Source of the DNA: a virus
Taxonomy: Duplodnaviria > Heunggongvirae > Uroviricota > Caudoviricetes
Length of the DNA: 30,664 nt
Strand: one strand, 5' to 3'
Virus record (IMG/VR): IMGVR_UViG_2802429251_000007
Span: 1 to 30,664 of that record
Positions 3,496 through 5,085 of this stretch are shown here, in pieces. The translations under genes and the position numbers were made by a program. Numbering within the stretch: the stretch's first letter is position 1; every line of letters begins with the position of its first letter. The notes below the pieces were generated by a model. That model saw nothing but the letters and a program-made list of their open reading frames with translations. It searched no databases and had not been told where the DNA came from.

Positions 3496-3666
3496 ATATC
3501 GTTTGCACAGTCACATTCGCGATTTATGGCGGGCTGTGTGGGGGAGCCGAAAGGCTCGCCGGTTTCCGTACCCGGTTACGCCAACCCTGCACAGTTCGCC
3601 ACCAGTTCGATTGGCGTCGTCGGTGGCGATAATTTCCAAATGTACGGAGTTATCGTTATGACCACT

Positions 3667-3674
3667 CAAATCTC
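3667..3674. repeat. IS1 target-site duplication, left copy (CAAATCTC)
   Basis: Identical 8-mer directly flanks both IS1 ends. Confidence 0.8.
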
Positions 3675-3729
3675 GGTGATGCTGCCAACTTACTGATTTA
3701 GTGTATGATGGTGTTTTTGAGGTGCTCCA

Positions 3730-4005
3730 GTGGCTTCTGTTTCTATCAGCTGTCCCTCCTGTTCAGCTACTGACGGGGTGGTGCGTAACGGCAAAAGCAC
3801 CGCCGGACATCAGCGCTATCTCTGCTCTCACTGCCGTAAAACATGGCAACTGCAGTTCACTTACACCGCTTCTCAACCCGGTACGCACCAGAAAATCATT
3901 GATATGGCCATGAATGGCGTTGGATGCCGGGCAACTGCCCGCATTATGGGCGTTGGCCTCAACACGATTTTACGTCACTTAAAAAACTCAGGCCGCAGTC
4001 GGTAA
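3730..4005 (+). CDS. insA: IS1 InsA
   Basis: [43 protein letters not shown]... recognised as IS1 InsA. Confidence 0.9.
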
Positions 4006-4427
4006 CCTCGCGCATACAGCCGGGCAGTGACGTCATCGTCTGCGCGGAAATGGACGAACAGTGGGGCTATGTCGGGGCTAAATCGCGCCAGCGCTGGCTG
4101 TTTTACGCGTATGACAGTCTCCGGAAGACGGTTGTTGCGCACGTATTCGGTGAACGCACTATGGCGACGCTGGGGCGTCTTATGAGCCTGCTGTCACCCT
4201 TTGACGTGGTGATATGGATGACGGATGGCTGGCCGCTGTATGAATCCCGCCTGAAGGGAAAGCTGCACGTAATCAGCAAACGATATACGCAGCGAATTGA
4301 GCGGCATAACCTGAATCTGAGGCAGCACCTGGCACGGCTGGGACGGAAGTCGCTGTCGTTCTCAAAATCGGTGGAGCTGCATGACAAAGTCATCGGGCAT
4401 TATCTGAACATAAAACACTATCAATAA
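3924..4427 (+). CDS. insB: IS1 InsB frame (expressed as InsAB' by -1 frameshift)
   Basis: ORF-track extent of the insB reading frame; C-terminal ...[50 protein letters not shown] recognised. Confidence 0.85.
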
Positions 4428-4442
4428 GTTGGAGTCATTACC

Positions 4443-4450
4443 CAAATCTC
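4443..4450. repeat. IS1 target-site duplication, right copy (CAAATCTC)
   Basis: Identical to 3667-3674. Confidence 0.8.
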
Positions 4451-5085
4451 TGTTGAAACTCTCTCCCCGATCACCCATAACCAGATTCCTGTTATTACCA
4501 CCGAACTTTTGGCGCAGCTTTACGGCACTGAGTCGGTGCGTATTCGCCAGAATCATCATGAGAACAAAGTACGCTTCGTTGAAGGGAAACACTTTTTCAA
4601 AGTTGTTGGTAATGACCTTAAAGAATTGCGGGTCGCTTTAAACTACTCACAAAATCCAGTTTCACCCAAAGCCCGCTCCCTCATCCTCTGGACAGAACGA
4701 GGCGCAGCACGCCACGCCAAAATGCTCGAAACCGATCAGGCGTGGGATGTGTTCGAAAAACTGGAAGACTGCTATTTCAGTCAAAAGGATCCGTCAACGC
4801 CAGTTTCATGCCAGAAAAGTTACGACACGCGAGTTCTCTGTTATCAGAGAGGCGGTGTCACTGTTTCCACAATTCAGTTACGGGATGATGATATTGTTAT
4901 TTCCCTTGAGTCATGGCTGGAACTGGCGAGAGCCAATGGTTGGTTTGTTGTTCGCAGAGATAAACTGGTGGAAAGGTTGATGCAGCTTTAAAAAAGTTCT
5001 TGCATTTTTGCACATAAACTGCTTCAATTCCGGTACGCTTCGCAAAGCTGTATCGCGAGGCGAACCAAGCGCATGAACTTTACCA

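Follow-up and report, generated by a model that had tools for sequence, protein, structure and literature searches.

In the Salmonella prophage Gifsy-1, the small RNA IsrK leads to the antirepressor AnrP, and AnrP in turn increases antQ and brings about phage induction (Hershko-Shalev et al. 2016, PMC4825925). The same study reported that part of the isrK transcripts read through into anrP, that phage production by AnrP in trans is independent of the isrK locus, and that an isrK-promoter deletion mutant still yields phage when AnrP is supplied (PMC4825925). In the immI region of phages P1 and P7 (c4-icd-ant1/2), the antirepressor gene is preceded by a C4-family RNA on the same transcript. The a' and b' segments of this RNA pair with sites a1 and b1 upstream and a2 and b2 downstream, a2 lies over a ribosome-binding site, and heteroimmune relatives differ in specificity type. 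The late promoter pR' of lambdoid phages is normally located at the stop codon of Q.

Here we analysed a 30,664-nucleotide stretch of DNA (the window; IMG/VR record IMGVR_UViG_2802429251_000007), which covers the right half of a lambdoid/myovirus-type Escherichia prophage on a contig that holds neither the prophage repressor nor the left half of the prophage. By sequence comparison, the interval that separates the Q-like gene from the late genes holds an anti-immunity cassette of approximately 0.84 kb of the P1 immI/Gifsy-1 isrK type, and an IS1 element interrupts its protein-coding gene (Table 1). Every component has been described before; these results extend P1/P7 and Gifsy-1 biology and do not define a new kind of system.

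The cassette shares with Gifsy-1 isrK-orf45-anrP the order of Q-like gene, promoter, isrK and antirepressor and, as in that prophage, an isrK sRNA with a predicted leaky intrinsic terminator is followed by a structured region encoding a putative processed RNA. The upstream genes, in the order DUF1367-YbcO-Q, recall the published account of the Gifsy-1 antQ operon (PMC4825925), and the DUF1367 homologue in phage ON470614 bears a Gifsy-type annotation note. The Q-like protein matched Pfam DUF1133 (1.7e-106), Phage_antitermQ weakly, and PHROG 753 'anti-termination protein Q-like' (8.5e-80). The TGA stop codon of its gene (3383-3385) overlaps the -35 hexamer of the putative cassette promoter, which was the best promoter-like site in a scan of positions 3200-6000 (10 of 12 positions) and whose hexamers are kept in every cassette copy, including those in the nin region. 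Since this promoter at the Q stop codon would drive the isrK-like sRNA and the C4-type RNA, we take it to be the antirepressor cassette's own.

The C4-type RNA has a predicted fold of -45.9 kcal/mol (z = -4.6). Its a' and b' segments are exact 7-nt complements of a2 and b2 in the leader of the downstream gene, hereafter ant, and are likewise complementary to the upstream decoy sites a1 and b1, with a2 over the ribosome-binding site as in P1/P7. Across 16 unique cassettes, a1/a'/a2 and b1/b'/b2 covary three ways: there are four a-types and four b-types, and each switches at all three sites together, which parallels the specificity types of P1/P7 heteroimmunity. The locus also differs from immI. 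We found no separate icd-like open reading frame (ORF) between the end of C4 (3606) and the ant ATG at 3658, and a2 covers the Shine-Dalgarno sequence of ant itself; the predicted antirepressor is a small protein with an ORF6N domain; the prophage is lambdoid and has the cassette between its Q gene and the candidate late promoter; and the a1/b1 segment appears to form an sRNA of its own that ends at a terminator (IsrK). The sole ORF upstream of ant overlaps C4, and its ATG 3526 and GTG 3538 are 12 nt apart, like the two starts of Gifsy-1 orf45. However, this ORF runs in frame into ant without a stop, whereas orf45 ends at an AUGA overlap; the ATGA at 3658-3661 closes a different frame. Two further differences from Gifsy-1 are that an Rfam search revealed no isrJ homologue downstream, where a conserved element that we call element D sits instead, and that the antirepressor gene is interrupted by IS1; its likeness to AnrP is drawn from the published description of that locus.

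Table 1. Features of the cassette, the IS1 insertion and the start of the late region, in window coordinates.
Feature	Position	Strand	Description
Q-like antiterminator gene	2831-3385	+	184 aa, DUF1133
Putative cassette promoter (PisrK equivalent)	3382-3411	+	sigma-70-like; TTGACT, 18-nt spacer, TATATT
c4-a1b1	3405-3457	+	Rfam RF03163, 52.2 bits (gathering score 46.7)
isrK-like sRNA	3418-3494	+	Rfam RF01394, 75.6 bits (gathering score 50)
Decoy site b1	3443-3449	+	TTGGCGT, in isrK-like sRNA
Decoy site a1	3460-3466	+	TACGGAG, in isrK-like sRNA
isrK intrinsic terminator	stem 3473-3490	+	stem and T run; terminator scan
C4-type antisense RNA	3522-3606	+	Rfam RF01695, 77.6 bits (gathering score 45), full model
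C4 a'	3565-3571	+	TCCGTAC, hairpin loop in predicted fold
C4 b'	3578-3584	+	ACGCCAA, unpaired, internal loop in predicted fold
b2	3611-3617	+	TTGGCGT, target site in ant leader
a2	3642-3648	+	GTACGGA, ant leader; overlaps ant Shine-Dalgarno GGAG 3646-3649
ant 5' stump	3658-3674	+	codons 1-5 and two bases of codon 6
Target duplication, left copy	3667-3674		CAAATCTC, 8 bp
IS1 (IS1A type)	3675-4442	+	768 bp, oriented as ant
IRL	3675-3697		GGTGATGCTGCCAACTTACTGAT, left inverted repeat, ~23 bp
insA	3730-4005		Pfam Zn_ribbon_InsA 1.3e-21, HTH_Tnp_IS1 4.7e-31
insB frame	3924-4427		overlaps insA, -1 frame; Pfam DDE_Tnp_IS1 5.9e-78
A6C slippery site	3981-3987		upstream of insA stop
IRR	4420-4442	-	GGTAATGACTCCAACTTATTGAT, right inverted repeat
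Target duplication, right copy	4443-4450		CAAATCTC, 8 bp
ant 3' part	4451-4991	+	rest of codon 6 to stop; no canonical start
Element D	5000-5119	+	candidate Q-dependent late promoter and terminator
Element D hexamers	5000-5005, 5023-5028	+	TTGCAT, 17-nt spacer, TTCAAT; weak, 7/12 positions
Element D initial transcribed block	~5037-5066	+	almost invariant
Element D intrinsic terminator	stem 5084-5109	+	10 pairs and T run; terminator scan; fold z = -3.8
tRNA-Thr(TGT)	5355-5430	+	ARAGORN, Rfam
tRNA-Gly(TCC)	5434-5508	+	ARAGORN, Rfam

IS1 splits ant, a gene for a 185-residue ORF6N protein, at codon 6. In silico deletion of IS1 together with one copy of CAAATCTC gave an uninterrupted 185-codon ORF from ATG 3658 to a stop at 4989-4991, and the GGAG in its leader provides the good ribosome-binding site that the initial annotation had described along with the restored frame. 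The restored ORF matched Pfam ORF6N (PF10543, 1.4e-20) and, over its full length, PHROG 2379 'anti-repressor' (3e-94), and its homologues in phage records carry antirepressor annotation. The gene had been called ORF6N/Rha-like; the first half of that name stands, and the Rha-like identity was rejected for lack of any Pfam Phage_pRha match at E <= 0.01. Given that isrK-like and C4-type RNAs recognized by Rfam lie between the Q-like gene and this ORF, we identify the disrupted gene as the antirepressor of an immI/isrK-orf45-anrP-type cassette, for which inactivation of the repressor is predicted at family level. The initial annotation had overlooked that an RNA-controlled anti-immunity switch would have the broken gene as its payload.

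The insertion itself is unremarkable in kind. All coordinates given earlier for an intact IS1 with both inverted repeats, insA, insB and the A6C motif hold. The two inverted repeats agree at 18 of 23 positions, and a search of the window with the inverted-repeat pattern returned only two matches, IRL and IRR, both with 0 mismatches, where shuffled sequences are expected to give 0. A 232-residue InsAB' product was predicted by the gene caller. The element has the length, inverted repeats, insA/insB organization with A6C, and short direct duplication with a known empty site that are characteristic of the IS1 family. It is 100% identical over 768 bp to copies in numerous E. coli genomes that are annotated as 'IS1-like element IS1A family transposase', and carrying E. 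coli genomes have IS1 in a median of 11 places. Thus it does not differ from IS1 of E. coli and Shigella; only its insertion site is particular, and insertion of IS1 into a prophage gene is an ordinary event.

IS1 target duplications range from 8 to 9 bp. On re-inspection the flanking repeats were identical, with CAAATCTC on both sides and unlike bases beyond it, so the duplication is 8 bp; such identity has a chance probability of approximately 1.5e-5. An empty site with a single CAAATCTC was found in E. coli PEC148 (99.6% identity). Furthermore, a Logan contig from SRR19918136 equals the window minus IS1 and one repeat copy over 1555 bp, with 0 mismatches (100% identity). The existence of this identical IS1-less contig indicates that the insertion was recent and precise, in agreement with the earlier proposal of a recent, clean event. 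The insertion was not encountered at the ant site in 80 related IMG/VR loci, and its junction had no full-length match in 5,426 complete E. coli genomes; the exact left junction was also absent from GTDB representatives, a set that is uninformative on this point because it holds one genome per species. IS1 is highly repeated, and IS copies are frequent points of breakage or mis-joining in draft assemblies, which raises the question of whether a collapsed or mis-joined repeat conceals an intact gene in the real genome. Both junctions are nevertheless present, also in the source assembly (GCA_002966045.1, contig PTRX01000003.1), they flank a perfect 8-bp duplication, and identical junctions occur in an independent contig from another sequencing run (SRR3993806). 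On the strength of two independent assemblies and the perfect duplication we rejected an assembly artefact, to which we assign next to no probability.

What remains of ant on the 5' side now encodes MTTQISVMLPTY (12 residues), ending at a stop within IS1 (3694-3696). The first canonical in-frame start of the 3' part is TTG 4509, which costs 25 residues and cuts into the ORF6N domain (residues 12-97). With a 12-residue stump and a 3' fragment that has no start of its own, the antirepressor is most likely null. Alternatively, IS1 could be regulatory, its right end driving a near-full-length Ant, one residue short and free of C4/IsrK control. The ant frame is open from 4428, directly after the insB stop in the same frame, and contains an ATT at 4437 just after a GGAG (4431-4434), from which the gene caller predicts a 184-residue ORF6N product; IS1 ends can form hybrid promoters, so that outward or hybrid promoter activity is conceivable. 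However, ATT is a very weak start and lies only 2 nt from the GGAG, the promoter scan reported no promoter-like site near 4380-4460 on the plus strand, and a constitutive antirepressor would be expected to destabilize the lysogen, yet the allele is present in two assemblies. We therefore consider regulation by IS1 very improbable and loss of antirepressor function the better reading.

Whether IS1 affects the late genes depends on where late transcription starts. The initial annotation placed IS1 in the late leader, where it might be polar. On that account late transcription would depend on Q and start from the promoter at 3382-3411, with the isrK terminator as tR' and the ORF6N gene as a moron. 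IS1 would then lie inside the late transcript and, barring read-through by Q-modified polymerase, have polar effects on the tRNAs and on the lysis and structural genes. Polarity is a classical property of IS1, and polymerase modified by Q resists terminators. This account fits a promoter that directly follows Q, where pR' is expected, and that is the strongest consensus match (10/12), as well as a short terminated transcript reminiscent of lambda 6S RNA; the partial read-through of isrK transcripts into anrP in Gifsy-1 (PMC4825925) also agrees with it, and Q could in principle act on the isrK terminator too.

Comparison of relatives points elsewhere. In Stx2a phages the same promoter-isrK-C4-ant unit occupies the nin region, ahead of ninG and Q, and two loci of our set (L022 and L029) carry the cassette twice, with the second copy in the nin region. 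The promoter thus travels with ant and not with Q, and by this comparison the cassette is portable, with a promoter of its own. We then considered 84 loci with this Q, sorted by BLAST, of which 50 lack the cassette. In all 50 cassette-less loci the core of element D lies 16 nt past the Q stop codon, so that its -35 hexamer falls at the stop; in phage vB_EcoS-666R9, for example, element D adjoins Q. In cassette-bearing loci that reach far enough it is kept downstream of ant (33 of 33), which brings its presence to 83 of 83 loci that extend far enough; it was never lost. The Q-to-D distance in the window, 1634, equals 858 plus 776. Conservation spans a block at approximately 5010-5066, and the terminator hairpin has at least five different sequences of the same form.

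Element D resembles the pR'-qut-tR' regions of lambda, 82 and 21 in lying at the Q stop of cassette-less relatives and in combining a hexamer pair with a conserved initial transcribed region and an intrinsic terminator approximately 50-85 nt downstream. It is followed by tRNAs and lysis genes, the likeness being one of layout and the response to Q a prediction. Unlike the usual arrangement, an antirepressor cassette parts it from Q in this prophage. Both tRNAs lie 3' of element D and 5' of the lysis genes, and the order of element D, spacer and tRNAs is also found in cassette-less relatives. Its weak promoter was not among the sites reported by the simple scan of 3200-6000. In an Rfam search of 4900-5400 (E <= 5) for an isrJ homologue or any other family, only chance-level matches and tRNA were recovered, so element D is not a described RNA family. 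Its position at the Q stop without the cassette, and its retention downstream of ant with it, make element D the leading candidate for the late promoter that depends on Q, approximately 550 bp downstream of IS1. The finding in Gifsy-1 that the isrK promoter is dispensable for phage production when AnrP is supplied also speaks against a late promoter at that position. We consequently regard the polar late-leader account as unlikely: the upstream promoter would belong to the cassette, and late transcription from a promoter 3' of IS1 would not cross the element.

In our judgement ant::IS1 is likely to be an antirepressor knock-out in an isrK/C4 cassette, with the late promoter in element D downstream and no polarity on the late genes. 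Under this model, the cassette promoter would transcribe the isrK-like sRNA with its decoys a1 and b1, ending at a leaky terminator. The C4 RNA would pair with a2 and b2 and keep the antirepressor untranslated; free IsrK would compete for a' and b' and relieve the block, and the ORF6N antirepressor would then inactivate the prophage repressor and start induction. An IS1A copy would have transposed into codon 6 of ant, producing the 8-bp duplication and leaving the IsrK and C4 genes intact, and late transcription would start at the element at approximately 5000-5119. If the broken gene is the anti-immunity payload, the question for induction becomes one of a lost trigger and not of polarity.

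A further possibility is that the IS1 hit represents domestication and not simple decay, in which ant has been removed while the cassette promoter and the IsrK and C4 genes stay intact, with the C4 donor kept by selection as an RNA-only immunity module. We find this distinctly doubtful. If true, the prophage would have lost a self-induction trigger and also, through Q, a route to toxicity, and C4 acting in trans could silence cassettes of the same specificity (a-type UACGGA, b-type GGCGUC) in co-resident or incoming phages.

For annotation, these results suggest that the gene should be recorded as an IS1-disrupted antirepressor pseudogene in an isrK/C4 cassette and not as a late-leader moron, and that the late promoter should be sought at approximately 5000-5030. 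Annotators of lambdoid and Stx prophages may use the portable cassette, its four-by-four a/b types and the Q-linked element D. With respect to the biology of the strain, our analysis suggests the probable loss from its prophage of an induction route that is gated by RNA and independent of SOS, and whose Gifsy-1 counterpart responds to stationary phase and low Mg (PMC4825925). The late genes downstream are intact ORFs, and isolated temperate phages match the structural region at 96% identity. Since Q, the late promoter and the genes for lysis and structure all look intact, other inducers may still act on the lysogen, repressor permitting.

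Re-reading of 3300-5300, together with a script, confirmed each coordinate and anatomical detail that the initial annotation had given for the insertion sequence. The element is an IS1 in all of the defining features tested: the window holds only two matches to the IS1 inverted-repeat pattern, both at the element's ends (shuffled sequences are expected to give none), and its full length is 100% identical to copies annotated as IS1A family in many E. coli genomes. On re-inspection CAAATCTC flanks it on both sides, and the duplication is 8 bp because the bases adjoining the two copies differ. 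Removing IS1 and one repeat copy yielded a single ORF, as had been proposed; it has 185 codons (ATG 3658 to the stop at 4991), with GGAG at 3646-3649 ahead of its start.

The window matches positions 79-30742 of contig PTRX01000003.1 (GCA_002966045.1) with 0 mismatches, and both IS1 junctions recur in run SRR3993806, which was assembled independently. A contig from SRR19918136 equals the IS1-less window across 1,555 bp with 0 mismatches. The locus is also uninterrupted in E. coli PEC148 and three further complete genomes (99.3-99.6% identity), where the annotation reads 'ORF6N domain-containing protein'. IS1 was found at this site in 0 of 5,426 complete E. coli genomes and 0 of 80 related viral contigs. 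Together, the junctions in two assemblies, the exact empty site and the absence elsewhere indicate that the insertion is clean and recent, as first thought, and confined to one lineage.

The interrupted gene (ant) had been called ORF6N/Rha-like. The restored protein carries an ORF6N domain (Pfam, 1.4e-20), which upholds the first half of that name; it has no Pfam match to Phage_pRha, and the second half falls away. Its full length aligns with PHROG 2379 'anti-repressor' (3e-94), and its homologues in phage records carry antirepressor annotation. Three Rfam matches, each above the gathering score, lie between the Q-like gene and ant, an RNA-controlled antirepressor context that the initial annotation overlooked. 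The arrangement matches antQ, isrK, orf45 and anrP of Salmonella Gifsy-1 (PMC4825925), with immI of P1/P7 as a related region (review: PMC12197685). Of the features that define the C4 RNA module, those tested are all present in the window except an icd gene; for the isrK locus the exception is orf45: here the equivalent ORF (3526-3660) continues in frame into the ant ATG, whereas orf45 of Gifsy-1 ends at an AUGA overlap. It has two starts 12 nt apart within the C4 RNA (ATG 3526 and GTG 3538); for an IS1-free contig (L085) a gene caller gave a 229-aa extended antirepressor. Relatives do not preserve the peptide, which fits constraint acting on the RNA and not on a protein. IS1A, C4 and isrK RNAs, ORF6N antirepressors and Q-linked late promoters have all been described previously.

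Features of the cassette, the insertion and neighbouring regions (window coordinates)
Feature	Position	Details
sok RNA	1166-1340	
HOK_GEF gene	about 1278-1490	
Rem-family small gene	about 1709-1885	
Q-like gene	2831-3385	DUF1133; PHROG 'Q-like'
Promoter	3382-3411	TTGACT, 18-nt spacer, TATATT; overlaps Q stop codon
c4-a1b1	3405-3457	Rfam
isrK	3418-3494	Rfam
b1	3443-3449	in IsrK, upstream; exact complement of b'
a1	3460-3466	in IsrK, upstream; exact complement of a'
C4 antisense RNA	3522-3606	Rfam
a'	3565-3571	TCCGTAC; hairpin loop of predicted C4 fold
b'	3578-3584	ACGCCAA; internal loop of predicted C4 fold
b2	3611-3617	ant leader, downstream; exact complement of b'
a2	3642-3648	ant leader, downstream; exact complement of a'; overlaps ant Shine-Dalgarno
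Target duplication CAAATCTC	3667-3674 and 4443-4450	
IS1	3675-4442	768 bp; sequence reading and script
InsA	3730-4005	Pfam Zn_ribbon_InsA, HTH_Tnp_IS1
InsB frame	3924-4427	Pfam DDE_Tnp_IS1
A6C slip site	3981-3987	
Element D	5000-5119	TTGCAT, 17-nt spacer, TTCAAT, almost invariant ~45-nt block, then intrinsic terminator
Hexapeptide-repeat acetyltransferase-like ORF	28414-28986	minus strand

The C4-like RNA is predicted to fold into a long stem (-45.9 kcal/mol, z = -4.6). Among 16 distinct cassette versions there are four a-types and four b-types in mixed combinations, and each change of type is seen at all three sites simultaneously. Such coordinated change argues strongly, on comparative grounds, for functional a/b pairings, and the mixing points to modular specificity of the kind seen in P1/P7 heteroimmunity. 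Most likely, by analogy with P1 and Gifsy-1, C4 RNA would block ant translation and IsrK, bearing the same sites, would compete for C4 or remodel the mRNA; the antirepressor would then inactivate the prophage repressor, Q would rise and the phage would be induced.

The cassette also occurs elsewhere. IMG/VR loci L022 and L029 each carry two promoter-isrK-C4-ant units per prophage (about 450-1755 and 4556-5382), one within the nin region, the other following Q; the two share a b-type (GGCGUC) and differ in a-type. Stx2a phages have this unit in their nin region, ahead of ninG, ninH and Q. In one of them (LC616031, L002; 2501-4061, upstream of ninG and Q) the first ORF6N gene is shortened to 121 aa and is followed by an Rfam sRNA-Xcc1 match (3264-3347) and then by another ORF6N antirepressor (3387-4061); these look like tandem RNA-plus-ant modules. 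PP818812.1 (L087; 13915-19039), labelled 'Actinobacillus phage vB_Apl-pPE4', has an E. coli-type Q-isrK-C4-ant-D region at about 90-96% nucleotide identity; its host label looks odd given the close match to Escherichia prophages.

The initial annotation placed the insertion in the late leader, with possible polarity on late genes, and probably had in mind the promoter that overlaps the Q stop codon. The hexamers of that promoter are conserved in every cassette context. Our classification covered 84 loci carrying a Q of this family: 80 IMG/VR loci, the window, L087 and two further compared loci, L001 and L086. Fifty lack the cassette, and in all 50 element D starts at the Q stop, its core 16 nt downstream. 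In 33 the cassette separates Q from D, which lie 854-1064 nt apart except in the window, where the distance is 1634 (858 plus the 776 nt of IS1 and duplicated target); in the remaining one the contig ends before D could appear. Phage vB_EcoS-666R9 has D adjoining its annotated Q gene; a small gene comes next, then holin and endolysin. The D hexamers are weak; its terminator hairpin keeps its form across at least five different replacement sequences. In Gifsy-1, AnrP supplied in trans yields phage without need for the isrK locus (PMC4825925). Because of the nin-region copies, the Q-D linkage and this AnrP result, we assign the upstream promoter to the cassette rather than the late operon, and D is the best candidate for pR'/qut/tR'. 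D begins about 550 bp past the end of IS1, so late transcription, judged by this comparative linkage, should not cross the insertion. Polarity on the tRNAs (5355-5508), lysis and structural genes is not expected, and the late-leader reading is probably wrong: the promoter travels with the cassette. The lysis and structural genes are intact ORFs, the structural region being 96% identical to isolated temperate phages.

The source contig begins 78 bp before the window; the integrase and immunity half of the prophage is on another contig, and the antirepressor's putative target repressor lies outside the window. A hok/sok type I toxin-antitoxin locus and the Rem-family small gene (together 1166-1885) precede the DUF1367-YbcO-Q genes, and an Rfam IS009 RNA match (28135-28333, 189 bits) falls within the tail-fibre assembly gene (27792-28370, Caudo_TAP). 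Beyond it, 28414-30664 covers the right end of the prophage and the host flank, with a Pin-like recombinase remnant, then yebW and pphA. Among 5,426 E. coli genomes the best match to this flank reaches only about 96-97% identity, so a somewhat divergent lineage of Escherichia may be the host.

IS1 leaves a 5' ant stump, MTTQISVMLPTY, followed by a stop. The first canonical start in the 3' fragment (TTG 4509) would drop part of the ORF6N domain. The insB/InsAB' stop (TAA, 4425-4427) shares the frame of this fragment, and the IS1 end plus duplicated target (4425-4451) recreates ATT ACC CAA ATC TCT, nearly the original N terminus. One gene caller (NCBI-contig gene table) predicted a 184-aa ORF6N product from the in-frame ATT 4437, 2 nt after GGAG; its expression is unlikely. 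IS1 does not alter the IsrK and C4 genes. That the crippled cassette is kept as an RNA-only immunity donor is the least ordinary reading, and an improbable one. Most likely the antirepressor-dependent induction route, which stationary phase and low Mg trigger in Gifsy-1 (PMC4825925), has been lost, and a repressor-cleavage route, if any, would remain.
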